A stretch of DNA of 33,321 nucleotides from Nitrospinota bacterium (GTDB lineage: Bacteria; JADFOP01). The stretch is from contig JADFOP010000002.1 in the NCBI GenBank assembly GCA_022562795.1, forward strand, positions 62,001 to 95,321, given 5' to 3'. The position numbers were made by a program, and so were the translations under genes. Below are positions 10,658 to 30,818 of this stretch, in pieces (the stretch's first letter is position 1; every line of letters starts with the position of its first letter). The notes under the pieces were generated by a model. The model was not told the origin of the DNA and did no database searches. It was given only the letters and a program-made list of their open reading frames with translations.

Positions 10658-10671
10658 GGGGGGCATAGCCG

Positions 10672-11592
10672 GTGCGCCGCTACGTTCTTCGACGGATTGG
10701 CTTACTCGTCCCGGTCGTGCTCGGGGTCGTTACGGTGGTATTCCTCATCGTCCATCTCATTCCCGGCGACCCGGTAGAGATTATGCTGGGCGAGCAGGCC
10801 CTGGCGGTCGATAGGGAGGCGCTGCGTCATGAAATGGGCCTGGACAAGCCCATTCATCTGCAGTACGTGGCCTTCCTGAAGGGCCTGGTCCGCGGGGACC
10901 TCGGCCAGTCCCTACACACCAAACAGCCGGTGCTTACGAGCATCGCACGCCGCTTGCCCGCGACCATCGAGCTGGCGGCGGCCGCGATGGCAGTCGCCCT
11001 GCTGCTTGCGATTCCACTGGGGTTGCTCGCCGCCTACAAGAAGGACTCATTAGTCGATCAGGGCTCGATGGTCTTCGCCCTATTGGGCATCAGCATGCCG
11101 AATTTCTGGCTAGGTCCCCTTCTGATTATCGTCTTTTCCTTGAAGCTCGGCTGGTTTCCCGTCTCTGGCCGGGGGAGCCTGGCCCACGTAGTCCTTCCCG
11201 CCATCACGTTGGGGACCGCGATGGCCGCCATTCTGACCCGGATGACCCGCGCCAGTATGCTGGATGTCATCCAGAGCGACTACATCACGACGGCGCGAGC
11301 CAAAGGAGTTCGCGAAAGCCTGGTGGTGCTCAAGCACGCCTTCCGAAACGCCCTCATTCCCGTGGTGACCATCGTTGGCCTCCAGATCGGCAGCCTGCTG
11401 GCCGGAAGCATCATCACAGAGACCATCTTTGCCTGGCCGGGGATAGGCCGGCTCACAATCCAGGCGATCAACGCCCGCGACTACCCCCTCGTGCAAGGCT
11501 GCGTGCTTATTATCGCCCTGGGCTACGTGCTGGTCAATTTCGCCACCGACCTCCTTTACGGACTCATAGACCCGAGGATTCGGTATGAATAG
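10672..11592 (+). CDS. Peptide/nickel ABC permease (DppB/NikB-like)
   Basis: PGDP, GDLGQS, SMPNFWLG, DYITTARAKG, RDYPLVQG, DPRIR. Confidence 0.93.
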   Translation: MRRYVLRRIGLLVPVVLGVVTVVFLIVHLIPGDPVEIMLGEQALAVDREALRHEMGLDKPIHLQYVAFLKGLVRGDLGQSLHTKQPVLTSIARRLPATIELAAAAMAVALLLAIPLGLLAAYKKDSLVDQGSMVFALLGISMPNFWLGPLLIIVFSLKLGWFPVSGRGSLAHVVLPAITLGTAMAAILTRMTRASMLDVIQSDYITTARAKGVRESLVVLKHAFRNALIPVVTIVGLQIGSLLAGSIITETIFAWPGIGRLTIQAINARDYPLVQGCVLIIALGYVLVNFATDLLYGLIDPRIRYE

Positions 11593-12890: not shown

Positions 12891-14474
12891 TTAGGGGCCG
12901 CTCTTCCCTCCCAACCTGCTCCCCTGCACTTTATACACTATCACGGGCAGCTCGGCTGAGGCGAGACCGGGCTGGTAGAAGCGGGCGACCTCCACGAGCG
13001 GCAGCTCCGCCGGCTCCGGCCCCCAGGCCCGCCGGTAGACTGTCCGGAAGACCTCCTCCGACGCCACGAGGAATCGCACCCCGTGGCGCTCGCAGTAGCT
13101 CCACAGCTTTCGACGCCGAACCCATGGCAAAAGCTGGTTGTTCACCGAGCCGTCCAGGTCGATCGCCGTCCGTCCGCTCACGTAGCTTAAGATGCCCACG
13201 TTGAATCCCGCCAGCCGTGTGCCCGGCGGGGTATGTTGGGTCACCCACCGCGCCGCTTGCAGGGAGCTCGTCTGCCAGGGGTAGAGCCCCTCCTGCCAGC
13301 TTCGCCAGCCCACCCCGATGTAGAGGACCGCCACGGCCAAGAGCAGGGCGCGGACGGTCGCCCGCCCCCAGGGGCGGTCGGCCAGCAACGCCGCTCCGCA
13401 CCCGAGGGTGACGGCGGTAAGCAGCACCACCGGAGCGAGTCGCCAGGGCCTCACAGTCCAGAAGACCGCCCCGTGGACGGCCAGGGTTGCCAGCAGCCCC
13501 ACGGCCAACGGGCCCAGCATGAGAGCGATGGTCCTCGAGCGCTGCGGGTACTGCGTTCTCTGGTCCAACGCCCCGATCCCGACGATCAGCAGGGCCGCGA
13601 TCGCGAGATACGAGAGCCCCGTGGCCCGAGGAAGGTCGTTAAAGAAGGTCTGGCGGAGGAGGCTTAGCCCCACGGCGGCCCACGGCCCCCACCCCGGGCC
13701 CGCCACGGCTTGGAAGTTTTGATGCAGGACGGTGGGCGCCGCCCACACGCTCGCGGTGGCGGCTGGGCCGAAGGTCACCCAATTCCAGGCGGCCCAGGGC
13801 GCTACGACCAGGGAAGCGCTGAACGAAATCTTGTAGAGGGCGGCCACTCTCCCCCAGCCCCTATCGACGACGAAGACGGTCCCGAGGAGCGCGACCACAA
13901 AGCCGAGGTTGTCGAGGTTCGCCAGCACAGCCGCCCCGGCGGCCAGGCCGAGCAGCCAGCCACCCCCCGGAGGGCGGCGAACCAAGAGCAAGACGCAGGC
14001 GATCAGAAAAAGGAGGCCGGCGGCCGTCTCCAGTCCGTTGACGCTCAGGGCGACCGCCATGGGATTCCACCAGTAGGCGACCATCCCCACCAGGGCGGCG
14101 GTCCGGTTTCCGAAAGCTACAAGGAAGAGCCGATAGAGAACGAGGGCCGTTAGGCCGTCGAGGAGTACCCCCGCGGTGAGAACGCCGTGCAGGGTAAATG
14201 GGCTTTCGGGGCCGAGCAACGTAGTCAGCCCCGCCACCGCGCCCATCCACAGTGGGTGGAAGCCGTTGGTGGGGGCAAGCGTATCGAAGGTCGGCCCCAA
14301 CCCCTCGACCAGGTGGCGGCCTATTGTGAGGTAATGGAACGCGGCGTCGGGGAGCACCTTGGAGATGAGGATAGGCAGAGGTTTCCAGGCGACGGCTAGC
14401 CGGACAAGCAGGCCAAGGACGAAGGCGCCCAGGGCGAGCAAGCGATGTCCGCCGGTAGCTGGAGGAAGCCTCAC
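12891..14474 (-). CDS. Polytopic membrane protein, probable GT-C fold glycosyltransferase
   Basis: More than 10 hydrophobic segments; first-loop motif PDAAFHY...TFD...TNGFHPLW, NGLET, C-terminal soluble domain with IDLDG.VN. Confidence 0.6.
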   Translation of the reverse strand: MRLPPATGGHRLLALGAFVLGLLVRLAVAWKPLPILISKVLPDAAFHYLTIGRHLVEGLGPTFDTLAPTNGFHPLWMGAVAGLTTLLGPESPFTLHGVLTAGVLLDGLTALVLYRLFLVAFGNRTAALVGMVAYWWNPMAVALSVNGLETAAGLLFLIACVLLLVRRPPGGGWLLGLAAGAAVLANLDNLGFVVALLGTVFVVDRGWGRVAALYKISFSASLVVAPWAAWNWVTFGPAATASVWAAPTVLHQNFQAVAGPGWGPWAAVGLSLLRQTFFNDLPRATGLSYLAIAALLIVGIGALDQRTQYPQRSRTIALMLGPLAVGLLATLAVHGAVFWTVRPWRLAPVVLLTAVTLGCGAALLADRPWGRATVRALLLAVAVLYIGVGWRSWQEGLYPWQTSSLQAARWVTQHTPPGTRLAGFNVGILSYVSGRTAIDLDGSVNNQLLPWVRRRKLWSYCERHGVRFLVASEEVFRTVYRRAWGPEPAELPLVEVARFYQPGLASAELPVIVYKVQGSRLGGKSGP

Positions 14475-15835
14475 CGTTTTTGGCTGCGTGCCTTACGCGC
14501 CAGGGCCCCCTGGATGGCCAGGACCTTCTCCACAACCGCCTCCGGCGAGACGCCGAGGACGCGGATCATGGGCTCCTTGCCGTGGCCGCCTGTGTCGTAG
14601 ATGACGTCGGGGACGCTGCCGGCCCGGCCGATGGCCTCTACGGTGCCCCACTCGAGGCTCGCCCCCTCGCGGCGCCTGACGGCAGGTGGCTCGTTAGAGC
14701 GGTCGAAGGCCCCGACCGCCAGCTTAACCTTCCGGCAGGCCGCGAGAATTCTCTTCTCGTAGCGGAGATTCATGGCTGCGCGTACGGACGGATCGTGGCC
14801 CATGGCCGCCAGTATCACGGCTGCCACGTGCTGGCTCGCCCCAAAGCTCGGCGGGGACACCTCCCGGACGGTCTCGCCCACCCGGTGAATTCTACCGGGG
14901 AAGGCGGCCACATCACGGCGGTCCAGCGCCTTCGGCAGGGCGTAACCCAGGTTGGTCTGGACCTCCGGCACCAGGGTGCCGATCCTAGCGGACTTGAGCC
15001 GCTCCAGGGCGGAGGTGAGACTATCTATTACGTGGGACCGGTGGAGGGCCTTGTGGATGGTCGCGGCTGGGTCGGCCGGCCCCGTACCGCCTCCGATGGC
15101 CAGCCCATGCCGGATGGCCTCGGTGACGAAGCGCTTTGCACGGTTCACCGCCTCGGCGAGCGAGGCCCCACGGGCTAGGTGGGCGGCGGTGGCCGCTGCG
15201 AGGATGCAGCCGGTGCCGTGGGTGTTGGGCTGATCGATACGCTCGGAGACGAGCTCCGTCACGGTCCGGCCGTCGAAGAAGATGTCGATGGCGCGGCCCC
15301 GCCCGTGGCCGCCTTTGACGAGCACGCTTTTGGGCCCCATCCGCTTGAGGGCCCGGGCCGCCTCGGCCATGTCAGCCATGCTCCGAAGACGCTTTCCCAA
15401 CAGAACCTCGGCTTCGGGCCTATTTGGCGTGATCACTGTGGCCAGGGGAAAGAGCCTCTCCACCAGGGTCCGGACCGCCTCGGGCATAAGAAGCGAGTCG
15501 CCGCTTTTTGCCACCATCACCGGGTCTACCACGAGATTGGGAATCCCGTGCTCGACAGCTTTCTTGGCCACGTGCTCGATTATCTCGACGTTGGAGAGCA
15601 TTCCCGTCTTTGCGGCGGCCACGGGGAGGTCCGAGCAGATGGCGTCGATCTGGCGGCCGATAATGTAGGCCGGCAGGTCGTAGATGTCGGTTACCCCTCG
15701 GGTGTTTTGGGCTGTCACAGAGGTTATAACGCTTGTCCCGAAGACTTCGAGCGCGGTGAAGGTTTTAAGGTCGGCCTGAATTCCCGCTCCGCCACCTGAG
15801 TCAGAACCCGCAATTGTAAGCGCAACGGGAATCAT
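14471..15835 (-). CDS. thiD: Bifunctional HMP/HMP-P kinase and ThiN-type thiamine phosphate synthase (ThiDN)
   Basis: IAGSDSGGGAGIQADLKT, VVDPVM, VKGGH, NTHGTGC; C-terminal domain LVPEVQTN, FPGRI, FGASQHVA, PDVIYDTGGHGKEPMIRVLG typical of ThiN. Confidence 0.9.
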   Translation of the reverse strand: MIPVALTIAGSDSGGGAGIQADLKTFTALEVFGTSVITSVTAQNTRGVTDIYDLPAYIIGRQIDAICSDLPVAAAKTGMLSNVEIIEHVAKKAVEHGIPNLVVDPVMVAKSGDSLLMPEAVRTLVERLFPLATVITPNRPEAEVLLGKRLRSMADMAEAARALKRMGPKSVLVKGGHGRGRAIDIFFDGRTVTELVSERIDQPNTHGTGCILAAATAAHLARGASLAEAVNRAKRFVTEAIRHGLAIGGGTGPADPAATIHKALHRSHVIDSLTSALERLKSARIGTLVPEVQTNLGYALPKALDRRDVAAFPGRIHRVGETVREVSPPSFGASQHVAAVILAAMGHDPSVRAAMNLRYEKRILAACRKVKLAVGAFDRSNEPPAVRRREGASLEWGTVEAIGRAGSVPDVIYDTGGHGKEPMIRVLGVSPEAVVEKVLAIQGALARKARSQKR

Positions 15836-16002: not shown

Positions 16003-17304
16003 TTATAGAGAGACCCGGTAGCCTTCCCTGGTTAAATAGCCCCATGCCCGATAGCCCTGCCGGGCCCTAGGGCTCAGGCGTCCGGCGGTCACAAACACCC
16101 GCCGATGGGTCGGGGGTTGATGCCCGACTTTTCCGACGGCATGGATCGCGCTCTCCGTCTCGGCGTCCCAAAGGACGTAGTCGGAAGGCGCGGCTACGAG
16201 CGTCGTTCCGTCGACCGTGTAGGCGACGGGCATCCCAGCAGCGATCCCCAGCCGATGGATTCGGGCTTCCTTGAGATGGTAGGAGGCGAGCATCTCGGCC
16301 GTCTTTTGATAGGAGAGGGCCGAGGCCTCGTCGGTGGCGTGCAGGGCGGCCTCGATAACGGCTCCCCGGTTGCCAACACCGCTCAGCTGCTCAAGGGCGC
16401 CTACGAGGAAGGTCTGGTGCCGAGGGGAGTATTCCGGGTGATTGATGAAGCGATCGAGGAGCTCCTGCCCAACACCCATCCACTCGAGCTTCTCCTCGTT
16501 GATGTCGGCCAGCTCCCCTGGCGACTTGTCCCTCAGGAGCGAGTTCATTGTGGCGCTGAACTTCCCGAGGCTGACCACGATACCCACCGCCCCGGGGATG
16601 AAGATGGCCCCGAGATTGACTGTTGCCTGACCCGCCGCCCGCTGGGTAGCGATGCTGTTGAGGAGGTCTTGAATCTGCGGGTTTGAGGAGTATACGTCCA
16701 CATTTAGCTCATCGGCCACCTTCCTCTTGTGCTTGGCCAGCAAGATCTCCTTCACGAATGAGTCCCGCCGCTTGCTCCGCTTCCTGCCCTTGAAGAGGCG
16801 GCCAAGTGCCGCGAACCTCTCTCCAAGCCCCTGTCCGACGGCCTTTACTGTCTCGACCGGATGGACCACAGTTCTCACCAGCGCCTCCCCCGTTGCTTCG
16901 ATGCGCTCGCCCGCGGCGTTGAGGAACTCGTACTCGTTTTTCAGCTCTACGGCCCGATCGAGTATCGATACCTCGTGGACGCGCACCTTGAGCATCTCAA
17001 GCGAGACGACGTCGTATCGTCCGTAGCGGGAACGTAGCGTAAAGTGGTAAAAGTGCCCGTCCGTCGATACCGGGTCGGCGACGGTGTGATACGGGCTTTT
17101 GCGGAGGGCCGGGGGAAGGATGTCGGCGGCCCGAAGGACCGGCGGAGCCTCGTAGGCCGGTGTCTCGTCCTGGGCCACGGACGCCGAGACTACCACGAAC
17201 AAGACCACTCCGGTGGATAGCCACGCCCCCCAGAAGCTCCAACGAGATCGGGCGGAAACGCTGATCAGTTTTCCCTCCAGCAGGAGGCGTTGAGATGGTG
17301 TCAC
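16003..17304 (-). CDS. Hypothetical exported or membrane-anchored protein
   Basis: 433 aa ORF, start overlaps lpdA stop (GTGA), N-terminal hydrophobic segment ending SVA-Q; no family recognised; start uncertain. Confidence 0.6.
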   Translation of the reverse strand: MTPSQRLLLEGKLISVSARSRWSFWGAWLSTGVVLFVVVSASVAQDETPAYEAPPVLRAADILPPALRKSPYHTVADPVSTDGHFYHFTLRSRYGRYDVVSLEMLKVRVHEVSILDRAVELKNEYEFLNAAGERIEATGEALVRTVVHPVETVKAVGQGLGERFAALGRLFKGRKRSKRRDSFVKEILLAKHKRKVADELNVDVYSSNPQIQDLLNSIATQRAAGQATVNLGAIFIPGAVGIVVSLGKFSATMNSLLRDKSPGELADINEEKLEWMGVGQELLDRFINHPEYSPRHQTFLVGALEQLSGVGNRGAVIEAALHATDEASALSYQKTAEMLASYHLKEARIHRLGIAAGMPVAYTVDGTTLVAAPSDYVLWDAETESAIHAVGKVGHQPPTHRRVFVTAGRLSPRARQGYRAWGYLTREGYRVSL

Positions 17305-18707
17305 GCTTCTCTTTTCGGCGGGATATGGATCGCCATGCCGTGGACGTCGTGGACGGCCTCCATAATGGCTTCGGACAGAGTCGGGTGAGCGTGGGTGAGG
17401 TCGCCAAGCTCAGAGGCCGTCATACCGGCGTGCATAGCGACCGCCGCCTCGTGGATGAGGTCGGCTGCGTGGTCGCCAACGATGTGGACGCCAAGAATCT
17501 GGTCGGTCTCCTCCTCGGCGATGACCTTCACCTGGCCTACCGTTTCTCCGGCGCACATGGCTTTTCCTAAGGCTCTGATGGGAAAGCGGCCCACCCGGTA
17601 TGCGAGGCCCCGCTTCTCCGCCTCCTCCTCGGTGATGCCGACCACCCCCACCTCGGGGATGGTGAAGATACCCGCCGGGACAATGTCGTAGTTCATGACC
17701 CGGTTTCGGCCCATGGCGTTCTCGGCGGCCACGATGCCCTCGGCCGAGGCTTTGTGGGCGAGCAGCGCCCCGCCAACCACGTCGCCGATGGCGTAGATGG
17801 CCTCGGTGGAGCTCTGCATCCGCTCGTTGACCACAATCTCGCCCCCCCCGGTTAAGTCAACCCCGGCGGCTTCGAGCCCAAGCCCGTCGGTGTTGGGGCG
17901 CCGTCCGATGGAGACCAGCACCAGGTCGGCCTCGACGGTCTCACCCCCCGCCAGCGTGATTAGCACCACTCCGTCCTCCTGGCGCTCGGCCTTATCCACC
18001 TTGGTGCCCGAATGGAGGGCGATCTTGCGCTTCTTAAGCTCTCGCTCGATGAGACGGCTGGTCTCGCCGTCTTCAAAGGGGAGGGCCCTCTCCATCATCT
18101 CCACCATGGTGACCCGGCAGCCGAGCTCGTGGTAGAGGAATGCGAACTCGCACCCGACGATTCCGGCGCCGATGATGAGCAGGTGGGAGGGAAGCTCCCT
18201 CAGGTTGACGGCCTCGTCGGAGGAGATTATGGATGCGCCGTCGAAGGGGAATGCAGGAATCGAAACCGGGCGGCTGCCGGTGGCGACGATGGTCTTTGCC
18301 GCCTCGACGGTCTCGGCGGCCCCGTCGGCGGCGGTCACCTCGATGGCAGTGGAACTCTTAAAGCGGGCCTGACCGTGAAGGTAAGTAACCCCCCGGCTCT
18401 TCAGCAGGGTTTGGATGCCCTTGACGAGGGTGGCGACGATCTTGTCTTTCCGGTCGATGAGGCGGCCCATATCGACCCGGGCTTCACCTTCTAATATTAT
18501 GCCGAACTCAGCCGCCTCCTTTATCTTTTTATAGACCTCGGCCGAGGCGATCATGGCTTTGGTTGGGATGCAGCCCCAGTTGAGGCAAGTCCCGCCTAGC
18601 TCGTCCTTGTCGATGAGGACCACGCGGCCTCCTAGCTGGGCCGCACGAATGGCCGCCACGTAGCCCCCGGGCCCGGCGCCGATGATGGCGAGGTCGTAGC
18701 TTGCCAT
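17301..18707 (-). CDS. lpdA: Dihydrolipoamide dehydrogenase
   Basis: GAGPGGYVAAIRAAQLG, GGTCLNWGCIPTK, LAHKA, HAHPTLSE. Confidence 0.96.
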   Translation of the reverse strand: MASYDLAIIGAGPGGYVAAIRAAQLGGRVVLIDKDELGGTCLNWGCIPTKAMIASAEVYKKIKEAAEFGIILEGEARVDMGRLIDRKDKIVATLVKGIQTLLKSRGVTYLHGQARFKSSTAIEVTAADGAAETVEAAKTIVATGSRPVSIPAFPFDGASIISSDEAVNLRELPSHLLIIGAGIVGCEFAFLYHELGCRVTMVEMMERALPFEDGETSRLIERELKKRKIALHSGTKVDKAERQEDGVVLITLAGGETVEADLVLVSIGRRPNTDGLGLEAAGVDLTGGGEIVVNERMQSSTEAIYAIGDVVGGALLAHKASAEGIVAAENAMGRNRVMNYDIVPAGIFTIPEVGVVGITEEEAEKRGLAYRVGRFPIRALGKAMCAGETVGQVKVIAEEETDQILGVHIVGDHAADLIHEAAVAMHAGMTASELGDLTHAHPTLSEAIMEAVHDVHGMAIHIPPKREA

Positions 18708-18750
18708 GGATCGCTCCGTAGGGAGGGTCTTTAATCCAGTAAACGGGGGA

Positions 18751-18780
18751 AGGATAACGGGAGGGGCTGGGGGGTGTCAA
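18751..18780 (-). promoter_or_regulatory. Sigma70-type promoter for lpdA
   Basis: TTGACA-18 nt-TATCCT on the minus strand. Confidence 0.45.
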
Positions 18781-18830
18781 GCTGGCCTGTTTTTAAAGTC
18801 GTTTTATCAATGTCGGTTTGATGGAGAAAA

Positions 18831-18862
18831 ATAGTTGACTATTTTAGACAGGAATGTATAAT
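18831..18862 (+). promoter_or_regulatory. cysK promoter overlapped by an IscR/Rrf2-type operator
   Basis: TTGACT (18835-40), 16 nt, TATAAT (18857-62). ATAGTTGACTATTTTAGACAGGAAT (18831-55) matches the IscR type-1 consensus ATASYYGACTRwwwYAGTCRRSTAT, as I recall it, at 23 of 25 positions. Confidence 0.75.
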
Positions 18863-18917
18863 AGGGGCAGAGTTTTTCGGGATTTTCCATTATTCCCCCT
18901 TTTTATGGGAGATTGCG

Positions 18918-19895
18918 ATGGGCCGGAAATGCTTTACAGACGCCTGCGACCTCATCGGAAACACTCCCCTGGTTAAGCTTCGCAGAACCACGGCGAAGGA
19001 CGGGGCAAACGTCTACGCCAAGCTGGAATTTTACAATCCAGGCGGGAGCGTGAAGGACCGGATTGCCCTGTCGATGGTTGAGGATGCCGAGCGACACGAG
19101 CTCCTCCAGCCGGGCTGGACGATCGTTGAGCCGACCAGCGGGAACACGGGAATCGGCCTGGCGATGGTGGGGGCGGTCAAGGGCTATCCCGTCGTGATCG
19201 TAATGCCGGAGGATATGACCTTTGAGCGGATCAACATCCTCAAGGCCTTCGGGGTTGAAGTGGTCTTAAGCCCTCCCGAGCAAGCCATGCAGGGAGCCGT
19301 GGATGAGGCTGGGCGGCTGCAGGCCGCAAACGAAAACTGGTTCATGCCACAGCAGTTCAACAACAGCGCGAACCCGGAGGTTCACCGACGGACAACGGCG
19401 AGAGAGATTCTCCGCTCCTTGGCCAAGGAGCCCATCCACGCCCTTGTAGCCGGCATCGGCACCGGGGGGACCATCACCGGGGTCGGCGAGGTCCTGAAGG
19501 GCCGCTATCCCGATCTATTAGTGGTCGGGGTGGAGCCTGCATCGAGCGCCGTCCTTTCGGGCAATAAGCCAGGGATGCACATGATTCAAGGCATCGGGGC
19601 GGGATTTATCCCGAAGGTGCTCAACCAACAGATCCTCGATGAGATAATGACCGTGACCGACGAGGATGCCTACCAGGCGGCCAAGCAGGTGGCTGCCGAG
19701 GAGGGGCTATTCGTCGGTATATCGGCTGGAGCCGCCTATTGGGCGACCCAGAAGGTAGCAGAACGGCTGGGACGGGGAGCGACGGTGGTGACCGTCTTCC
19801 CCGACGGGGGTGAGCGGTACCTCTCTTTTGAGCGGTATTTCAGTTGGCCTGAGCGGGAGGAAGTGGCCGCAGAGGTTTCGGCCGACGGTCGATAA
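18918..19895 (+). CDS. cysK: Cysteine synthase A (O-acetylserine sulfhydrylase)
   Basis: NPGGSVKDR, EPTSGNTGIG, QQFNN.AN, GIGTGGT, HMIQGIGAGFIP, DGGERYLS. Confidence 0.92.
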   Translation: MGRKCFTDACDLIGNTPLVKLRRTTAKDGANVYAKLEFYNPGGSVKDRIALSMVEDAERHELLQPGWTIVEPTSGNTGIGLAMVGAVKGYPVVIVMPEDMTFERINILKAFGVEVVLSPPEQAMQGAVDEAGRLQAANENWFMPQQFNNSANPEVHRRTTAREILRSLAKEPIHALVAGIGTGGTITGVGEVLKGRYPDLLVVGVEPASSAVLSGNKPGMHMIQGIGAGFIPKVLNQQILDEIMTVTDEDAYQAAKQVAAEEGLFVGISAGAAYWATQKVAERLGRGATVVTVFPDGGERYLSFERYFSWPEREEVAAEVSADGR

Positions 19896-19899
19896 TCCA

Positions 19900-19929
19900 T
19901 TGACGACCGCAGCGTCGTTGTGGTAGGTT
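19900..19929 (+). promoter_or_regulatory. Putative promoter for the riboswitch-controlled operon
   Basis: TTGACG-18 nt-TAGGTT with an extended -10 TGn. Confidence 0.4.
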
Positions 19930-19948
19930 CTGCTCTCCCATAGGATAA

Positions 19949-20061
19949 TCTTATCCAGAGCGGCGGAGGGACGGGCCCTTTGAAGCCGCAGCAACCGGCT
20001 CCCAGTCCGGGGAGTGTCCGGTGCTAAATCCCGCAGGGTCCCCGGACCTTGAAAGATGAGA
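19949..20061 (+). ncRNA. SAM-I (S-box) riboswitch aptamer
   Basis: TCTTATCCAGAG..GGAGGGACGGGCCC..GAAGCC.CAGCAACC...GGTGCTAAATCC..CAG...GAAAGATGAGA. P1 TCTTATC/GATGAGA, P2 GCGGC/GCCGC, P3 and P4 stems all pair. Confidence 0.95.
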
Positions 20062-20090
20062 AGACCCGGCCGGCCTAGCGCGTACGGGAG

Positions 20091-20120
20091 GCCTCTTCTC
20101 GCCCCGGGAAGAGGTTTTTT
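20091..20120 (+). terminator. Intrinsic terminator of the riboswitch expression platform
   Basis: CCTCTTCTC-gcccc-GGGAAGAGG then T6; the 5' arm (CTTCTC) can instead pair with GAGAAG at the P1 3' strand, forming an antiterminator. Confidence 0.88.
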
Positions 20121-20153
20121 GCTGGATGCCGGACCCGCTTAAGGGGAGGCGAT

Positions 20154-21392
20154 ATGAGTTTCGTCCTCGGTCTCAAATGTCGTGAGTGCTCGAGGGAGTA
20201 TCCAAAAGAGCCCCTTCACGTCTGCGAATACTGCTTCGGCCCCCTGGAGGTGGTCTACGACTATGAGGGCATCGGGAGGGTCATAAGCAGGGAGAGCATC
20301 GAGGCCGGCCCCAATAGCATGTGGCGCTACCGTCCTTTGCTGCCCATCGACGGTGAGCCCGCCGTGGGGCTCCACGTCGGAATGACCCCTATGATCCGGA
20401 CAAAACGCTTGGGCAAAGCCCTGGGGCTTAACAACCTCTACGTGAAGAACGACAGCGTCAATCACCCCTCATGGAGCTTCAAGGACCGGGTGGTCAGCGT
20501 CGCCATCACTAAAGCCCGGGAGTTCGGCTTCGAGGTGGTGGCCTGCGCCTCCACCGGGAACCTGGCCAACTCGGTGGCCGCCATGGCGGCTCAGGCGGGG
20601 CTCCAAAGCTACATCTTCATCCCCGCCGACCTGGAGGAGGGAAAGGTTCTGGGAACCCTCATCTATGGAGCGAATCTCATTGGTGTGAAGGGCTCCTACG
20701 ACGACGTCAACCGCCTCTGCAGCGAGATTGCCGCCAACTATCACTGGGCGTTCGTCAACATCAACATCAGGCCCTATTACGGCGACGGCTCCAAGACATA
20801 CGCCTATGAGGTCGCCGAGCAGCTCGGCTGGAGGGCGCCCGACAACATAATCGTCCCCGTGGCCGGCAGCTCTCTCATCATCAAGATCGACAAAGGGTTC
20901 AAGGAGCTAGCTTCCTTGGGGCTCATCCCTGAGGCCGCGTGCAAGGTCTACGCGGCCCAGGCGACCGGCTGCAGCCCCGTGACCACGGCGATCAAAGAGG
21001 GGGAAGACTTCTTCCGGCCGGTCAGGCCCAACACCATCGCCAAGAGCATCGCTATCGGAAACCCCGCCGACGGAATCTACGGCATCCGGGTAGTCAAGGA
21101 GACCGGCGGATGGGGCGAGGATGTAACCGACGAGGAGCTCGTCGATGGCATGAAGCTGCTCGCCGAGACGGAGGGCGTCTTTACCGAGACGGCAGGCGGC
21201 GTTGTCGTAGCGGTGGCCCGCAAGCTCGTCAAACAAGGGCGCATAGACAGCGATGACCTCACCGTGCTCTCCATTACCGGCCACGGCCTAAAGACTCAGG
21301 AGGCCGTTATCGGAAAGATCGGCACTCCTTTGCTCATCGAGCCGAGACTCAGCTCGTTCGTCGATATGTTTAATAACCCCAAGAAGGAGTAA
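20154..21392 (+). CDS. Threonine-synthase-like PLP enzyme; inferred O-phosphohomoserine sulfhydrylase (MetM-like)
   Basis: N-terminal CxxC..CxxC, SFKDR PLP lysine, CASTGNLA, FVNINIRPYYGDGSKT; lies after a SAM riboswitch and directly before a sulfur carrier. Confidence 0.75.
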   Translation: MSFVLGLKCRECSREYPKEPLHVCEYCFGPLEVVYDYEGIGRVISRESIEAGPNSMWRYRPLLPIDGEPAVGLHVGMTPMIRTKRLGKALGLNNLYVKNDSVNHPSWSFKDRVVSVAITKAREFGFEVVACASTGNLANSVAAMAAQAGLQSYIFIPADLEEGKVLGTLIYGANLIGVKGSYDDVNRLCSEIAANYHWAFVNINIRPYYGDGSKTYAYEVAEQLGWRAPDNIIVPVAGSSLIIKIDKGFKELASLGLIPEAACKVYAAQATGCSPVTTAIKEGEDFFRPVRPNTIAKSIAIGNPADGIYGIRVVKETGGWGEDVTDEELVDGMKLLAETEGVFTETAGGVVVAVARKLVKQGRIDSDDLTVLSITGHGLKTQEAVIGKIGTPLLIEPRLSSFVDMFNNPKKE

Positions 21393-21396
21393 CGCC

Positions 21397-21678
21397 ATGG
21401 CTATCACGGTGCGCATACCCACACCTCTTCAGGGCTTGACGCAGAACCGGGCCGAGGTCGATGCCAAGGGCAGCAACATCAAGGAGCTTGTGGAGGACCT
21501 TGATCGGCAGTATCCAGGCATCAAAGAGCGCATCTGCGACGAAACAGGCGCCATCCGCCGGTTCGTCAACATCTACCTGAACGATGAGGACATCAGGTTC
21601 ATCGATGGAGACTCAACTGCGGTCAGGGAGGGCGACGACGTCTCGATTATCCCCGCCATCGCGGGCGGCTCGTGCTAA
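21397..21678 (+). CDS. MoaD/ThiS/CysO family ubiquitin-like sulfur carrier
   Basis: VRIPTPL, RRFVNIYLNDEDIRF, IIPAIAGG followed by SC and stop. Confidence 0.93.
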   Translation: MAITVRIPTPLQGLTQNRAEVDAKGSNIKELVEDLDRQYPGIKERICDETGAIRRFVNIYLNDEDIRFIDGDSTAVREGDDVSIIPAIAGGSC

Positions 21679-21730
21679 GAGCCCTCTTAGGACTTAACTA
21701 CAAGCTTCGCATGGTGTGGAGATCAGAACC

Positions 21731-22711
21731 ATGACACACCGGGATACGAAAATTAGTATAGATAAGAAGACGTCGGTGAGCTACGGCAAGAGGCCCTACC
21801 GTGCAAGGGCTGTAGGGTTGCTTGGATGCGCGGGGCTCTTCATCTCCTTATTGGTATTTGGGGCGACGTCCTGGACCACCCTGACGGCCTGGGCGGCCGG
21901 GTATCCCAACGACCGGCTCCTGGTTGATACTACCTGGGTGGCCGAGCACGGGAAAGATGAGGGAGTGCGAATCCTCGACGTGCGACCTATTGGAGAGTAC
22001 ATGCAGGGTCATATCCCCGGGGCGGCTCACTTCGACGTGGCCCAGGTTAGGGTCGAGCGTGGCGGCGTAAAGGGAATGCTTCCTCCGCCTGAGGTGCTCA
22101 ACGCCATCTTCGGCGACCACGGGATCAGCCGAGAGAACACTGTTGTCCTATACGACGGGAAAGGAGGGCTTTGGGCCTCGCGCCTCTTCTTCGCCCTGGA
22201 CTACATGGGCCACCCCGACGCCCGCCTCCTAAACGGCGGGTGGCTGAAGTGGTCCCGTGAGAGACGGCCCGTAACCCGGGCCCCTGCGCGCGTGGAGCCG
22301 GCCACCTACCGCGGACGGCCCGACCCCGAGAAGCTTGCCGACGCCTCCTGGATAGTTGCCCACCTCAACGACCCGACCGTAAAATCCCTCGATACCCGGA
22401 GCGCGGGCGAGTATCTAGGCAAGGATGTTCGATCCGCCCGGGGAGGCCACATCCCTGGGGCCGTGAACGTCAACTGGGTCGAGAACGTAAGCGGACCGAG
22501 CATGGGCTTCAAATCCGCCGACGAGCTCCAGGCCATCTACACCAAGGCCGGGCTCACGCCGGACAAAGAGGTGGTGCCCTACTGCCAGAGCCACGTACGG
22601 GGCAGCCATTCCTACTTCGTCCTCAAGCTTTTGGGTTATAAGAAGCTCAGAGGCTACGACGGATCGTGGAATGAGTGGGGAAACCGATCGGACCTACCTT
22701 TGGGTAAGTAA
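21731..22711 (+). CDS. Two-domain rhodanese/sulfurtransferase with N-terminal export signal
   Basis: GHIPGA twice, LLNGG, active loop YCQSHVR, YDGSWNEWG; basic then hydrophobic N-region ending AWA-A; start uncertain (21716, 21731 or 21776). Confidence 0.88.
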   Translation: MTHRDTKISIDKKTSVSYGKRPYRARAVGLLGCAGLFISLLVFGATSWTTLTAWAAGYPNDRLLVDTTWVAEHGKDEGVRILDVRPIGEYMQGHIPGAAHFDVAQVRVERGGVKGMLPPPEVLNAIFGDHGISRENTVVLYDGKGGLWASRLFFALDYMGHPDARLLNGGWLKWSRERRPVTRAPARVEPATYRGRPDPEKLADASWIVAHLNDPTVKSLDTRSAGEYLGKDVRSARGGHIPGAVNVNWVENVSGPSMGFKSADELQAIYTKAGLTPDKEVVPYCQSHVRGSHSYFVLKLLGYKKLRGYDGSWNEWGNRSDLPLGK

Positions 22712-22743
22712 TGGGGAACGACACCTAACGTGGGCGGACGACA

Positions 22744-23631
22744 ATGAACCCTATGGATGATAATCCACTACTGGTGGAGACCGCCTGGCTCGACCTCAGG
22801 CGGAGGGACCAAGATCTAGTGATCTTGGATACGCGGCGACGGACTCAGTATCTGATGGGACACATCCCGGGGGCGGTGAGCTTTCCCATGCGGAAAGTCA
22901 CCGACGAGCGCTTCTGGAGCCCTGGCTTCCTCCCCAGCGAGGAGGAGTTGCGGCGGCGTCTGGGCTTGGCCGGATTCAGGCGCGACGATTATCTCGTGGT
23001 CTACGATGACGGGGACGGACTGGCAGCTTCCCGCGTCTTCTGGGCTCTTGATTACCTTGGCCACCCTAGGGTTAGCCTCCTAAACGGTGGGTTTTCCAAA
23101 TGGAGCTACGAGGGCCGGGGGCGCAGCCTTCGCCGCCACAAGAGGCCCAAGGCATCATATGAGGGGAGCCCAGTCCAGCAAAGGCTTGTGGGAGCTGAGT
23201 GGATCCACCACCGGTTGGCCAGCGGCCATGAGCTAGTCCTCATCGACTGCCGCTCAGCCGACGAATACACCGGAGCCCGCCGAAAGGCTGCCCGCTGTGG
23301 GCACATTCCCGGAGCCGTTCACGTTGAGTGGACGCGCAATCTGCGCGAGACGGGGCCCTGTCCCGTCTTTAGGGACCGCGAGGAGCTTTTGGCCCTCTAC
23401 CAGGGAGCGGGGGCCGACGATGGTTTGCCTCTGGTCACTTACTGCCAGGCCCAGGTTAGAGGGTCGCACACCTACTTCGTGTTACGCTGGCTTGGGTTTA
23501 AGGCGGTCTACGGCTACGAGGGCTCGTGGGGCGAGTGGGGCAATGACCCCCAGATGCCCATTGCCACCGGCGACGAGCCGGGACGCATTGTGGAGACCCG
23601 TGAGGGGGAAAGGGGCAAAGCGCCCTTCTGA
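22744..23631 (+). CDS. Two-domain rhodanese/sulfurtransferase, cytoplasmic
   Basis: GHIPGA twice, LLNGG, YCQAQVR, YEGSWGEWG; no signal peptide. Confidence 0.9.
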   Translation: MNPMDDNPLLVETAWLDLRRRDQDLVILDTRRRTQYLMGHIPGAVSFPMRKVTDERFWSPGFLPSEEELRRRLGLAGFRRDDYLVVYDDGDGLAASRVFWALDYLGHPRVSLLNGGFSKWSYEGRGRSLRRHKRPKASYEGSPVQQRLVGAEWIHHRLASGHELVLIDCRSADEYTGARRKAARCGHIPGAVHVEWTRNLRETGPCPVFRDREELLALYQGAGADDGLPLVTYCQAQVRGSHTYFVLRWLGFKAVYGYEGSWGEWGNDPQMPIATGDEPGRIVETREGERGKAPF

Positions 23632-23665
23632 CCAACATAACGCAAGACGATAAGGAAGAATATCG

Positions 23666-24598
23666 ATGTTGCACGCCAGAGGCCCAATGCTGAACGCCCC
23701 GCAGGATAGGGCGTGCCACATCTTGGAGCTGATAGGCAACACCCCGCTGCTGCGCCTCAACCATTTGGGGAGGGCCTTTCCCCGCGTGGAGATTTACGCC
23801 AAGGCGGAATGGATAAACCCGGGAGGCAGCATCAAAGACAGGCCCGCGCTTAAGATGCTTGAGGTGGCCGAAGAGACGGGCGAGCTGACAAAGGACAAGA
23901 CCATCCTCGACTCCACGAGCGGGAACACCGGCATTGCCTACGCCATGATAGCCAGTATCAAGGGCTACAGGGTCGAGCTCGTCATGCCAGCCAACGTCAG
24001 TGAGGAGCGCAAAAAGATAGTCACCGCATACGGGGCCAACATCATATACTCCAGTGCCTTGGAGGGCTCCGACGGAGCCCAGCTCAAAGCCAAGCGCCTC
24101 CTGGAGGAGTATCCTGAGAAATACTTTATGCCCGACCAATACAACAATGAGGCCAATTCGCTCGCTCACTACGAGACGACGGGGCCAGAGATTCTCGAGC
24201 AGACCGAAGGGACCATCACCCACTTCGTTGCTGGCCTCGGCACGAGCGGAACCCTCATGGGCACCGGCCGTCGACTAAAAGAGTTCAATCCCGACATCCA
24301 GCTCATCGCCGTCGAACCGAAGCACGCCCTCCACGGACTGGAAGGCTTAAAGCACATGGAGAGCTCCATCGTCCCGCAAATATACGATAGAAGTTTCCAC
24401 GACGAACTCATCCCCGTGAAAACCGAGGATGGATACGATATGGCCCGCCGGCTGGCTCATGAAGAGGGGCTGTTTATCGGCCACTCGTCCGGCGCCGTGA
24501 TGGTGGCGGTACTGGAGGTGGCCTCAAGGATCAAGGAGGGTGTGGTGGTCACTGTCTTTCCCGACGGAGGCGACCGCTACATTTCGACCAATTTTTAG
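23666..24598 (+). CDS. cysM: Cysteine synthase B-like PLP enzyme
   Basis: NPGGSIKDR, DSTSGNTGIA, DQYNN, GLGTSGT, GLEGLKHM..SIVP.IYD. Confidence 0.82.
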   Translation: MLHARGPMLNAPQDRACHILELIGNTPLLRLNHLGRAFPRVEIYAKAEWINPGGSIKDRPALKMLEVAEETGELTKDKTILDSTSGNTGIAYAMIASIKGYRVELVMPANVSEERKKIVTAYGANIIYSSALEGSDGAQLKAKRLLEEYPEKYFMPDQYNNEANSLAHYETTGPEILEQTEGTITHFVAGLGTSGTLMGTGRRLKEFNPDIQLIAVEPKHALHGLEGLKHMESSIVPQIYDRSFHDELIPVKTEDGYDMARRLAHEEGLFIGHSSGAVMVAVLEVASRIKEGVVVTVFPDGGDRYISTNF

Positions 24599-24645
24599 CC
24601 CCAATACCACCGCCCGGGCTTTTGCACGTCCACGGGAGGCGTCAC

Positions 24646-24909
24646 ATGGCCGAACGATTCGTTGACCTGACGGTCCCGGAAGCCATGATAAAAGAGCCGA
24701 TTATATATTCCTTGGGTCAGCAGTTCGACGTGGTCCCCAACATTTTCCGAGCCGACGTTACCCCAACGACCGGATGGGCGATCCTTCAGCTCGAGGGGGA
24801 GGAGTCTGAGATCGAGCGTGCCATCGAGTGGCTCCAGGGCCACGGCATCACCGTGAAGGTCGGAGGGGAGGAGCTGCTTCAAGCTCGCGACGAGGCCGAG
24901 GGCTCGTAA
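24646..24909 (+). CDS. Stand-alone NIL domain protein 1
   Basis: KEPIIYSLGQQFDVVPNIFRADV...GWAILQLEG...IERAIEWL...GITV; ATG behind GGGAGG. Confidence 0.82.
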   Translation: MAERFVDLTVPEAMIKEPIIYSLGQQFDVVPNIFRADVTPTTGWAILQLEGEESEIERAIEWLQGHGITVKVGGEELLQARDEAEGS

Positions 24910-24915
24910 GGTCCG

Positions 24916-25719
24916 ATGCGTGCAGAGTTCACAGAAGAAGAGATCCGTAGGTACGGTTGCCAGATGGTCCTGCCCGAGGTGGGCGACGTCGGCCAGGCAA
25001 AGCTCCGGGCCGCCGGTGTGCTCATAATCGGGGCTGGGGGTCTGGGCAGCCCTGTAGCCATTTACCTCGCGGCTGCGGGTGTGGGGAGACTCGGTATAGT
25101 GGACAGTGACGAGGTGGAGCTGTCGAACCTACATCGGCAAATTCTCCACACCGAGGAAGCCGTTGGCCGGCCCAAGGTTGAAAGCGCCCAGACTATGCTT
25201 GGGGAGGTCAACCCCCTGGTGGAGGTGCAGACCCATCCCATGCGCCTTCAGGCGGCCAACATTGAGGCCCTCATCGCCGGCTACGACGTCGTGGTGGACG
25301 GGAGCGACAACTTTCCGACCAAGTTCCTCGTCAACGACGCGTGCGTCTTCGCCGAAAAACCTCTCTCGCTGGCTGGTATTCACCGCTTTGAGGGCCAGGT
25401 GATGACCATCGTTCCAGGCCAGGGGCCCTGCTATCGGTGCATATTCATCGAGCCGCCCCCCGAGGGGGCCATCCCCAGCTGCGAGGAGGCCGGAGTCTTC
25501 GGGGCCGTGGCGGGCCTGGCCGGGTGCATTCAGGCGGTTGAGGTCGTAAAACTCATTCTGGGGATTGGGGAGCCTCTCGTCGGCTCCATCCTGCGCATCG
25601 ACACCCTCCGGGGCTCTTTTCGAACAGTCCCGGTCAACCGCAACCCCAACTGCCCCGTGTGCTCCGAGGAGGCGACCATTACGACGCTGGTGGACCAAAG
25701 CCTTGTCTGCAGCGAATAA
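24916..25719 (+). CDS. MoeB/ThiF family sulfur-carrier adenylyltransferase, no rhodanese domain
   Basis: GAGGLG, DSDEVELSNLHRQ, DGSDNF, CYRC, PSCEEAGV, CPVC. Confidence 0.9.
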   Translation: MRAEFTEEEIRRYGCQMVLPEVGDVGQAKLRAAGVLIIGAGGLGSPVAIYLAAAGVGRLGIVDSDEVELSNLHRQILHTEEAVGRPKVESAQTMLGEVNPLVEVQTHPMRLQAANIEALIAGYDVVVDGSDNFPTKFLVNDACVFAEKPLSLAGIHRFEGQVMTIVPGQGPCYRCIFIEPPPEGAIPSCEEAGVFGAVAGLAGCIQAVEVVKLILGIGEPLVGSILRIDTLRGSFRTVPVNRNPNCPVCSEEATITTLVDQSLVCSE

Positions 25720-25741
25720 CCCTCACGCGAAGGAGGCGGCC

Positions 25742-25984
25742 ATGGCCATCATCCGTGTGCAGCTTACCTTTCCTCAAGAGTCAGTCAAGCGGCCCGTCAT
25801 TTACGAGATCGGAAAAGAGTTCGATGTGGTAACGAACGTCCGACGGGCCAACGTCACGGCGACCTCGGGGTGGGTGGTGCTCGAGCTAAGCGGCGAGCGG
25901 GAAGAGATCGAGCGGGCCCTCGAAGGCTTTAAATCCCGTGGGGTGAGAGTCGATCCGGTTGAGGGTGATGTGGTCAGTCCATGA
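25742..25984 (+). CDS. Stand-alone NIL domain protein 2
   Basis: LTFPQESVKRPVIYEIGKEFDVVTNVRRANV...GWVVLELSG...IERAL...GVRV; ATG behind AAGGAGG. Confidence 0.82.
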   Translation: MAIIRVQLTFPQESVKRPVIYEIGKEFDVVTNVRRANVTATSGWVVLELSGEREEIERALEGFKSRGVRVDPVEGDVVSP

Positions 25985-25994
25985 GGTTGATTGA

Positions 25995-26432
25995 ATGTTA
26001 CGGGTTCCAAGCTCTATCGTTGAGGCCATGTTCGACCACGCTAAGAAAGAGGCTCCTAATGAATGTTGCGGCCTTCTTACGGGCAAGGACGGGCTGGCTA
26101 CACACCACTACCCGGCGACGAACGCCGATAGCAGCCCCACCACATACTCCATCGAGTCGCGTCAGCTCTTTGAGATTCATCGGGCTGCTCGCGACGCTGG
26201 GCTAGATATTTTGAGCGTCTATCACTCTCACACCATGACCAGGGCGTACCCGTCACCAACCGACGTCAACCGGGCCTTCTGGAATGGGACCGAGCTGGAG
26301 ACATACCCCGGGTGCATTCACCTGATCATTTCGCTGGCCGAGGGTGACGAGCCCGTCCTCAGGGGTTTTCGTATCCCCTCTCGAGAGACCATCGAAGAGG
26401 TTCCCGTCACGATTATCAGAGACACCACGTAA
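25995..26432 (+). CDS. JAMM/MPN+ (M67) metalloprotease, Mec-like carrier peptidase
   Basis: EAPNECCGLL and YHSHT....YPSPTD give the complete JAMM motif. Confidence 0.9.
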   Translation: MLRVPSSIVEAMFDHAKKEAPNECCGLLTGKDGLATHHYPATNADSSPTTYSIESRQLFEIHRAARDAGLDILSVYHSHTMTRAYPSPTDVNRAFWNGTELETYPGCIHLIISLAEGDEPVLRGFRIPSRETIEEVPVTIIRDTT

Positions 26433-26445
26433 GGAGACGAGCCCA

Positions 26446-26913
26446 GTGAAGTTTACCAGTCGCGGCCGGTACGCTGTGAGAGCGATGATTGATTTGGCCT
26501 ACCACACCCTGGAGCATCCCGTGAGCCTCGCCACCATTGCTGTGCGGCAGGGGATTTCGCAGCACTACCTGGAGCAGCTCTTCGTGCGGCTGCGTCGGGC
26601 GGAGCTGGTCCGAAGCGTGCGCGGGCCCGGCGGAGGCTACTTTCTAGCTAAAGAACCCATAGCGATCTCCGTACGCGACATCTTCCTGGCCGTAGACGAG
26701 TCCCTCAGCACTCCGGAGTGCGAAAAGTTGACCAATCCCGACCAGGAGCCCTGTGACCGACTCGACGAATGCGTCTCCCGAGTCATTTGGAAGAGGGTGG
26801 CCGATCAGGTGGCCCAGGCCCTTAACTCCGTCAGCCTCGAAGACCTGTGCATGGAGCGCGAGAAGCTCGACAAGAGCGAAGTCTTTTCCCACACTTACGG
26901 TTTCAACATCTAG
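26446..26913 (+). CDS. Rrf2 family regulator, IscR-like with three clustered Cys
   Basis: GRYAVRAMIDLA, RQGISQHYLEQLF, SVRGPGGGY, C-x10-C-x5-C, tail HTYGFNI; GTG start behind AAGGAG. Confidence 0.9.
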   Translation: MKFTSRGRYAVRAMIDLAYHTLEHPVSLATIAVRQGISQHYLEQLFVRLRRAELVRSVRGPGGGYFLAKEPIAISVRDIFLAVDESLSTPECEKLTNPDQEPCDRLDECVSRVIWKRVADQVAQALNSVSLEDLCMEREKLDKSEVFSHTYGFNI

Positions 26914-30697: not shown

Positions 30698-30818
30698 GTC
30701 GCGTCGCCCAGACCCTGCCCGGCCACCTCCTCCTTTCCCTGCCCTGATTCTCCCTGGAGCGCTAAGCCTCCATGTGGTACCATGAGGCCCCTCTATGGGC
30801 GCGATCGGAGGAGCTACC

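Follow-up and report, generated by a model that had tools for sequence, protein, structure and literature searches.

The locus and its riboswitch

The DNA analysed here, called the window, is a 33,321-nucleotide (nt) stretch from a Nitrospinota bacterium (contig JADFOP010000002.1), and the subject of this text is its gene at 20154–21392, which encodes a homologue of threonine synthase (ThrC). The gene stands first behind an S-adenosylmethionine (SAM) riboswitch and is followed at once by a gene for a small sulfur carrier of the ThiS/MoaD family. We read it as very probably encoding a MetM-type homocysteine synthase, an enzyme commonly mislabelled threonine synthase. A preliminary description, made from the sequence alone, had proposed a methionine-pathway enzyme behind a misleading label. 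The present analysis supports that reading as correct but no longer new: the pathway was published in 2024 and the misannotation is noted in GapMind 2026.

SAM riboswitches control methionine and SAM genes. The aptamer here (SAM-I, or S box) matches Rfam family RF00162 over its full length, model positions 1–108, at 85.3 bits against a gathering score of 44.4 (E 4.8e-19), and an Rfam scan of the whole 33-kb window returned no RNA family besides SAM-I. Downstream lies an intrinsic terminator, a hairpin with a stem of about 10 bp, a 3-nt loop and a run of six T after it, which folds at −21.5 kcal/mol (z −2.36; 4 of 200 shuffles fold as well); it is visible by folding and was not flagged by a consensus terminator scanner. 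The heptamer GAGAAGA at 20058–20064 is complementary to UCUUCUC at 20094–20100 in the 5′ arm of the terminator and shares five nucleotides (20058–20062) with the 3′ strand of helix P1, the aptamer match itself ending at 20062. This pairing forms in a fold made without the 5′ half of the aptamer. Read from the sequence, the layout is the usual antiterminator logic of a transcriptional SAM-off switch: an aptamer above its gathering score, and a terminator competing with an antiterminator that takes up the 3′ strand of P1.

Ten genes lie on the same strand behind the riboswitch, from the ThrC-like gene (here metM) through a probable Rrf2-family regulator (Table 1). Gene metM ends with TAA at 21390–21392, the carrier gene begins after 4 intervening nt with ATG at 21397, and the ribosome-binding site of the carrier gene, AAGGAG at 21384–21389, lies within the end of metM. 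The preliminary description had put metM first behind a SAM-off terminator riboswitch and 4 nt ahead of the carrier gene, and both placements hold. From the carrier gene on to the gene for a JAB metalloprotease the intergenic gaps measure 37, 32, 34, 47, 6, 19 and 10 nt, with 13 nt more to the Rrf2 start, a GTG preceded by AAGGAG at 26431–26436. A terminator scan of the plus strand from 18700 to 26900 gave one site only (26187–26202), inside the JAB gene, and none between genes. We infer co-transcription from metM to the JAB gene, and the Rrf2 gene may be the last of the operon.

By its gene content, the locus would encode a complete protein-thiocarboxylate sulfur relay. The carrier, whose best solved relative is Mycobacterium tuberculosis CysO (3dwg_C, 81.8 bits), has a C-terminus that reads AGG-SC, so two residues must come off to expose a GG end; the JAB protease (best solved relative 2kks, 59.2 bits) is the candidate trimmer. 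The MoeB/ThiF-type E1 adenylyltransferase scores 279.5 bits with NF004281 (cut-off 266) and carries no fused rhodanese domain, its match to the MoeZ model NF005902 covering profile positions 13–273 of 392 only. The CysM-like protein is claimed by the general cysKM model (Table 1) and stays under the cut-off of the cysM model TIGR01138 (372.2 against 394.2 bits); its solved relatives include PDB 9jxu (248.8 bits) and M. tuberculosis CysM (3dki/3dwg, 226.2 bits). Two tandem-rhodanese genes sit between the carrier gene and cysM. The first of them has about 65 additional N-terminal residues and reaches 136.5 bits with NF008557, under the cut-off of 250. No other thrC lies within the window.

Separation of the enzyme from threonine synthase

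The protein is descended from threonine synthase and belongs to the enzymes of fold-type II (PALP) that use pyridoxal 5′-phosphate (PLP). It has an N-terminal ribbon of four cysteines (C9, C12, C24 and C27), the lysine of the SFKDR motif (K110) and the signature VNINIRPYYGDGSKT, and it contains FVNINIRPYYGDGSKT. In the HMMER alignment, VNINIRPYYGDGSKT stands opposite VN-SVNPYRIEGQKT of Aquifex ThrC (2zsj) and VN-SVNPHRLEGQKT of Thermus ThrC (1uim). The noncanonical motif that the preliminary description had seen in place of NSxNPxRxEGQKT is therefore present and aligned, and the label it had called a trap is one: the thrC equivalog TIGR00260 takes the protein at 290 bits against a cut-off of 167.1, and all source names shown among its close homologues are 'threonine synthase'. 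The same model gives 270–294 bits for four other members of the clade described below and 310–328 bits for true ThrC, and it does not discriminate between the two. The misannotation is systematic because NCBIfam release 20.0 offers no model able to distinguish these enzymes. Among the NCBIfam models, NF006050 (PRK08197, 'threonine synthase', 406 positions, spanning the Zn ribbon) scores clade members at 261–289 bits against a cut-off of 303 and canonical ThrC at 194–201 bits; it may mainly describe a neighbouring clade of ThrC-like proteins that carry a Zn ribbon.

Phylogeny separates what the annotation joins. A FastTree phylogeny was built on 155 rows: the window, 79 of 80 related loci (one partial sequence dropped), 11 second copies from those loci, 58 of 150 representatives of a wider search retained by length and coverage, Nonomuraea, four thrC anchors and Escherichia coli ThrC. 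The window protein falls inside a clade of 114 rows (support 99), and canonical ThrC forms a separate clade of 16 rows (support 100) that includes all 11 second copies, Streptomyces thrC and Nonomuraea thrC. IQ-TREE (LG+C20) recovered the same two clades from 63 hand-chosen rows, with 39 and 10 rows and a Shimodaira–Hasegawa-like approximate likelihood ratio (SH-aLRT) support of 99 each, and a riboswitch-linked homologue from Nonomuraea falls inside the first clade in both trees. Forcing the window protein and its relative at locus L001 into canonical ThrC costs 136.9 log-likelihood units (approximately unbiased (AU) test, 29 rows, LG+G4, p-AU 3.9e-06), the constrained group, like the clade, having been named only after the tree was inspected. 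The canonical clade also holds two near-identical thrC-thrB copies from Lysinibacillus and Stenotrophomonas plasmids, with branches of about 0.005 and the same flanking genes. The protein of L078 (CAZKTW010000352.1), labelled a metagenome-assembled genome (MAG) of an uncultured Bifidobacteriaceae member, groups tightly with Verrucomicrobiota; mis-binning or transfer are possible.

The two clades also part at individual residues. Across 114 clade rows and 16 canonical rows, the clade has STGN-LA where canonical ThrC has STGN-TS, KDR-VV against KDR-GM, PVA-G/S-S-L against PVGNAGN, S298 and A300 against A and R, ADG against ASW, AGG against ASA and GLKT against GLKD. At the signature itself, N204, R206 and Y209 replace canonical S, N and R, with an insertion of one residue; R206 is found in 97% and Y209 in 98% of clade rows, and the corresponding N and R in 16 of 16 canonical rows. 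Positions counted along the HMMER alignment to 1uim place Thermus S155, R160 and N188 at N204, Y209 and G238 (S238 in some members); S, R and N are retained in every one of the 16 canonical rows, and the new arginine, R206, lies three positions ahead of the replaced R site. The FVNINIRPYYGDGSKT-type motif is thus a family signature, not a chance variant.

An exhaustive search collected 13190 relatives at E ≤ 0.001. Wherever the motif was legible in a representative of more than about 42% identity, it follows VN-x-N-x-R-x-[YFW]-Y-x-[ED]-G-[SA]-K-[TS], the pattern being unmatched in representatives P0165 and P0188; more distant representatives carry other motifs, among them the canonical NS-x-NP-x-R-x-EGQKT. 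We considered the Zn ribbon as a diagnostic of MetM and rejected it, as it occurs also in other ThrC-like clades and in P0243, a representative with the canonical motif. Identity with cysteate synthase, another comparison raised in the preliminary description, was likewise rejected (TIGR03844, 59 bits against a cut-off of 324.9; PDB 9k3c, 28.6 bits). The combination of STGN-L, N-x-R-P-Y-Y, PVA-G/S-S-L and ADG could seed a model that tells the enzymes apart. The 'thrC' label hides how these organisms make methionine and can create a false second threonine synthase in metabolic reconstructions.

Related loci, NIL partners and carrier fusions

One scan of species-representative genomes provided the related loci, the best 80 of at least 600 matches, at 57–72% identity and from more than 20 phyla. 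Nitrospinota MAGs are the closest among these 80 (72% identity), with none closer, and no Streptomyces is among them. The phyla recovered include Nitrospinota, Nitrospirota, Planctomycetota, Verrucomicrobiota, Zetaproteobacteria, Omnitrophota and Aquificota, and the organisms are mostly uncultured; L036 is the complete Nitrospinaceae chromosome CP070799.1. A ThiS-like carrier gene, searched for with a profile built from sequences without the carrier-NIL fusions described below, lies downstream on the same strand in 72 of the 80 loci, within 300 nt in 64; counting only the 75 loci that offer 400 nt or more of downstream sequence, it is present in 70. Further neighbours are MoeB (43 loci), JAB (29) and CysK or CysM (37); a rhodanese homologue was found nearby in none of the 80.

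Using a covariance model made from three SAM aptamers, we found a SAM riboswitch upstream of the ThrC-like gene in 27 of the 80 loci, including 8 of 9 in Verrucomicrobiota and 5 of 5 in Zetaproteobacteria. It was found in none of the 11 loci with an adjacent canonical thrC and in none of 5 canonical thrC loci. Those 11 loci, from Thermodesulfovibrionia-like Nitrospirota, run from the ThrC-like gene through a carrier gene and a NIL-domain gene to a second ThrC-like gene of 360 amino acids (aa), which at L015 scores 508 bits with Aquifex ThrC 2zsj and carries VNSINPYRIEGQKS; the window protein scores 195 bits with the same structure. The MetM-like gene and canonical thrC adjoin there, so competitors for O-phosphohomoserine are encoded side by side, and with this second copy the MetM-like gene is not the only thrC in the genomes of these relatives. 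A tRNA-Sec (RF01852, 71.3 bits) lies at L015 13000–13093 on the minus strand; the canonical thrC, with which the cluster closes, is about 4 kb upstream of it.

The actinomycete Nonomuraea gerenzanensis has, in this order, a SAM riboswitch, a gene for a ThrC-like protein of 51% identity and an open reading frame (ORF) for a ThiS protein of 91 aa, with a separate canonical thrC adjoining a GHMP kinase gene. The record used (NZ_LT559118.1; L081/L082), from a plasmid collection, is labelled 'plasmid I', is chromosome-sized at 11.85 Mb and has 10 annotated features.

Small NIL-domain proteins recur beside the carrier. Of the 80 related loci, 60 have a NIL gene downstream, and in 55 it is within 300 nt of the carrier. 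At nine loci carrier and NIL domain are fused in one ORF, a ThiS domain ending ...AIAGG, a short linker and then the NIL domain; Pfam shows ThiS and NIL in both fusions checked (L003 and L019). The fusion makes the GG internal, so proteolytic release is needed, as in ubiquitin fusion proteins. At two further loci the carrier domain, ending in GG, runs into a ThiF/MoeB domain in one ORF (Pfam). In the literature searched, which did not include the founding Streptomyces albulus paper, the link between NIL domains and homocysteine appears only in an unrelated pathway of DUF39 and NIL/ferredoxin proteins. NIL partner, carrier-NIL fusion and carrier-E1 fusion point to pathway parts not found in the literature searched.

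We suggest, tentatively and as something we rather doubt than expect, a SAM-gated, ubiquitin-like relay in which one JAB-trimmed carrier feeds both MetM and CysM, the NIL protein is a core component of the MetM pathway and the Zn ribbon is the dock of the carrier. If true, small NIL proteins would be a previously unrecognised part of the MetM pathway, as a sensor of methionine or homocysteine or as a sulfur-delivery factor.

Table 1. Features of the window, and carrier fusions and second thrC copies in related loci; coordinates are those of the sequence named in the first column
Sequence	Feature	Coordinates	Strand	Evidence and remarks
Window	cysK-type cysteine synthase	18918..19895	+	TIGR01139 413.8 bits, cut-off 350.95; PALP domain; upstream of and outside the riboswitch
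Window	SAM-I riboswitch aptamer (S box)	19948..20062	+	Rfam RF00162
Window	Intrinsic terminator of expression platform	20085..20120	+	Stem 20092–20114; T6 20115–20120
Window	ThrC-like PLP enzyme (P0001), 412 aa	20154..21392	+	Pfam PALP 235.8 bits; read as MetM-type
Window	ThiS/MoaD-family sulfur carrier (P0002), 93 aa	21397..21678	+	Pfam ThiS 60.3 bits; CysO/MetO-like
Window	Tandem-rhodanese sulfurtransferase 1, 331 aa	21716..22711	+	Pfam Rhodanese, 2 stretches, 123.3 bits
Window	Tandem-rhodanese sulfurtransferase 2, 295 aa	22744..23631	+	Pfam Rhodanese, 2 stretches, 124.9 bits
Window	CysM-like cysteine synthase, 310 aa	23666..24598	+	TIGR01136 cysKM 364 bits, cut-off 344.15
Window	Stand-alone NIL-domain protein 1, 87 aa from ATG 24646	24646..24909	+	Pfam NIL 56.9 bits; ORF open from 24622
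Window	MoeB/ThiF-type E1 adenylyltransferase, 267 aa	24916..25719	+	Pfam ThiF 269.6 bits
Window	Stand-alone NIL-domain protein 2, 81 aa from ATG 25739	25739..25984	+	Pfam NIL 58.6 bits
Window	JAB/MPN metalloprotease, 145 aa	25995..26432	+	Pfam Prok-JAB 73.8 bits; Mec-like
Window	Rrf2-family regulator	26446..26913	+	Pfam Rrf2 128.9 bits; probable start GTG 26446
L003	Carrier-NIL fusion	7275–7790		
L005	Carrier-NIL fusion	7288–7803		
L006	Carrier-NIL fusion	7614–8147		
L013	Carrier-NIL fusion	3041–3472		
L014	Carrier-NIL fusion	3020–3535		
L019	Carrier-NIL fusion	6334–6906		
L038	Carrier-NIL fusion	7297–7815		
L065	Carrier-NIL fusion	7276–7791		
L069	Carrier-NIL fusion	6336–6851		
L007	Carrier-E1 fusion	10102–11169		
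L028	Carrier-E1 fusion	7253–8335		
L015	Second, canonical thrC	7856–8947		
L016, L017, L020, L023, L026, L030, L039, L040, L041, L042	Second, canonical thrC			Likewise

A probable thiocarboxylate route to homocysteine and its alternatives

The MetM/MetO type of pathway is already described, reportedly by Hasebe et al. in 2024 (Appl Environ Microbiol 90:e0124724) from Streptomyces albulus, and the present locus is not a new kind. By others' descriptions the S. albulus system, like the window, combines a ThrC homologue with a ThiS-like carrier, a Mec-type JAB protein and an E1, and its metM shares with the window gene the usual 'threonine synthase' label, the substrate O-phosphohomoserine (presumed for the window gene) and, according to PMC12172450, an upstream SAM riboswitch. 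The GapMind 2026 table has MetM, MetO, Mec and MoeZ as experimentally supported and MetM as 'MetO-thiocarboxylate-dependent' and often misannotated as threonine synthase; MetO (UniProt A0A059W7F4 in S. albulus) is named as the sulfur carrier of MetM (GapMind 2026; bioRxiv 10.64898/2026.09.15.751699). Unlike S. albulus, the source of the window is uncultured and has its nearest relatives among Nitrospinota (72% identity), not an actinomycete; the window clusters all accessory genes in one operon, CysM and two NIL genes included, its E1 lacks the rhodanese domain of MoeZ, and it has two separate tandem-rhodanese genes. We used adjacency of the carrier gene as our own criterion for MetM, of which the position of metO in S. 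albulus is not part. What appears to go beyond the descriptions cited here is the ten-gene operon that combines MetM with CysM and puts E1, JAB and separate rhodaneses behind one riboswitch, and the broad distribution of the clade over many phyla.

The proposed steps are as follows. The substrate would be O-phospho-L-homoserine, as for ThrC, and the reaction a gamma-replacement with sulfur, where ThrC adds water at C-beta. The donor would be the C-terminal thiocarboxylate of the 93-aa CysO/MetO-like carrier. On the gene content, the GG-SC precursor would be trimmed by the JAB protease, the carrier adenylated by the MoeB-type E1 and sulfur loaded onto it, probably by the two rhodanese proteins; once the sulfur has been transferred, resolution of the carrier-homocysteine adduct would set homocysteine free, with methylation to methionine encoded elsewhere. 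We infer the substrate, the chemistry and the order of the carrier steps, as we do co-transcription. ThrC probably retains the released phosphate, which would steer water addition. The remodelled phosphate pocket of the clade would suit an enzyme that admits a sulfur nucleophile. Since one SAM-I terminator riboswitch stands ahead of the operon, high SAM would stop the flow of sulfur into homocysteine and to CysM.

A predicted complex is consistent with this route. We modelled MetM (alignment A1) with carrier residues 1–91 (alignment A3) and obtained ipSAE values of 0.62, 0.63 and 0.58, the best of three controls giving 0.00; the pass mark is a level that 116 of 157 solved complexes attain, as do 2 of 215 mismatched pairs, counts that hold only roughly here because our own alignments were used. 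The runs agree in at least 85% of contacts, with a partner predicted local distance difference test score (pLDDT) of at least 85. In the model, the carrier tail (85–91) contacts enzyme positions 137, 202–203, 206 and 237–240, which are clade-specific, and the invariant carrier residues R54-R55-F56-N58, D65 and R67-F68 contact the Zn ribbon at 22–30. The model supports docking of the GG tail in the remodelled active site, and docking only.

Other known systems share parts of this arrangement. The CysO-CysM-Mec+-MoeZ system of M. tuberculosis (3dwg) likewise has a CysO-like carrier, a JAB protease, an E1 and a CysM-like gene, and its CysM is a fold-type II PLP enzyme that takes a protein thiocarboxylate; the acceptor enzyme of the window is instead ThrC-derived, would use the four-carbon O-phosphohomoserine to make homocysteine, and has an N-terminal Zn ribbon, modelled against the carrier. 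Canonical ThrC (Aquifex 2zsj, Thermus 1uim, Bacillus subtilis 6cgq, M. tuberculosis 2d1f) has the fold and the presumed substrate in common with the window protein, as well as the SFKDR lysine and STGN loop, and differs in its separate clade, in the change from S/R/N to N/Y/G-or-S, and in lacking the extra Cys4 ribbon and the linkage to carrier and riboswitch. In Wolinella succinogenes, HcyS, HcyF, HcyD and MetY are said to form homocysteine with sulfur from a ThiS-like thiocarboxylate, together with an E1 and a JAB protease; that route reportedly differs in using an O-acetylhomoserine sulfhydrylase of fold-type I and acylated homoserine, not a ThrC-like enzyme and O-phosphohomoserine. Price 2018 (PMC5764234) names 'the protein thiocarboxylate pathway' and describes a DUF39 and NIL/ferredoxin pathway to homocysteine in methanogens and Desulfovibrio. 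There a NIL-domain protein has a genetic link to the formation of homocysteine, as would be the case at our locus. The DUF39 route bypasses homoserine, however, and the window has no DUF39, COG2122 or ferredoxin domain; its NIL proteins are small and stand alone beside the carrier, and in relatives they are fused to it. Operons of ThiS, E1, JAB and cysteine synthase were described by Iyer et al. 2006 (PMC1779556), the accessible part of which never mentions threonine synthase.

Several points weigh against a MetM function for the window gene. That S155, R160 and N188 of Thermus ThrC are its phosphate ligands, on which the reading of the pocket rests, is a presumption. Genes hom, thrB, metE and metH are all missing from the window, which leaves both the source of O-phosphohomoserine and the final step out of view. 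Clade and AU-test group were named after the tree, as said, and the orthology to S. albulus MetM (UniProt A0A059WBP2) is drawn from the Nonomuraea proxy and from the descriptions of other papers. The riboswitch was found in 0 of 27 Nitrospirota loci and in 0 of 3 Nitrospinota loci, the nearest relatives of the window, so this control is not conserved. The solved CysM-CysO complex 3dwg is a like case, and the passing of the complex model may partly reflect it, in addition to its rough calibration. Eight of the 80 loci have no downstream carrier, four of them with more than 4.9 kb of room and five with a riboswitch, so the carrier may not be obligatory. Finally, PMC12172450 describes a Microcystis aeruginosa 'ThrC' that is 51.6% identical to MetM and stands beside a MetO-like gene, with no SAM riboswitch; weak threonine synthase and deaminase activities were reported for it in vitro, and methionine was not raised in vivo. 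No other result speaks as strongly against a uniform function of the family.

The five riboswitch-linked loci without an adjacent carrier, and the four that lack one despite ample room, would suit an O-phosphohomoserine sulfhydrylase whose direct sulfur donor is free sulfide or another small molecule, the carrier serving mainly CysM, as in the CysO-CysM pathway, or being optional; the CysM-like gene in the same operon fits as well. We regard this as unlikely, since 64 of 80 loci have the carrier immediately behind the ThrC-like gene but only 37 have CysM or CysK, the gap here is 4 nt with the ribosome-binding site of the carrier inside metM, the model would put the GG tail at clade-specific active-site residues, and the GapMind name itself makes the enzyme thiocarboxylate-dependent.

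The Microcystis activities raise a second alternative, a moonlighting ThrC-like enzyme with weak threonine synthase and deaminase activity in a regulatory or catabolic role, as proposed for that organism. For the window gene this is very improbable: the Microcystis homologue is described without a SAM riboswitch, the window has a complete sulfur-relay operon, and no carrier-thiocarboxylate donor is among the Microcystis assays in the accessible text of PMC12172450.

A genuine biosynthetic threonine synthase, with riboswitch and carrier beside it by chance, deserves next to no credence. The TIGR00260 score, the best solved relatives (all threonine synthases, with Aquifex ThrC 2zsj at 195 bits), the names of the homologues and the retained SFKDR lysine motif and STGN loop all speak for it. 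Set against these are the separate clade and the AU test, the replacement of S, R and N, each of which stands in every one of the 16 canonical rows, the distance between 195 bits and the 508 of the paralogue to the same structure, the coexistence of canonical thrC in relatives and the absence of thrB and hom nearby; besides, it would make no sense for SAM to repress the synthesis of threonine. The enzyme might instead catalyse some other replacement, with a different phosphorylated or acylated amino acid as substrate or a different thio-amino acid as product. This has precedent in ThrC-like enzymes recruited elsewhere (cysteate synthase is among the distant matches, and several other uncharacterised ThrC-like clades carry Zn ribbons), yet it is scarcely credible here with the cysteate synthase models so far under cut-off and a SAM riboswitch recurring across phyla. 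The MetM-type homocysteine synthase has the separate clade, the carrier linkage in 72 of 80 loci, the riboswitch in 27 and the coexisting canonical thrC of relatives on its side.

Elsewhere in the window, we noted a ThiD-ThiN fusion (phosphomethylpyrimidine kinase and thiamine-phosphate synthase ThiN) at 14471–15835 on the minus strand, and, on the plus strand, an MtaB-type radical-SAM methylthiotransferase (30795–32135) and a SAM hydroxide adenosyltransferase family protein (32051–32962). Two long minus-strand ORFs, 12891–14474 (527 aa) and 16003–17304 (433 aa), had no Pfam match; the 527-aa ORF was scanned by Pfam only, and the 433-aa ORF had no NCBIfam match either.

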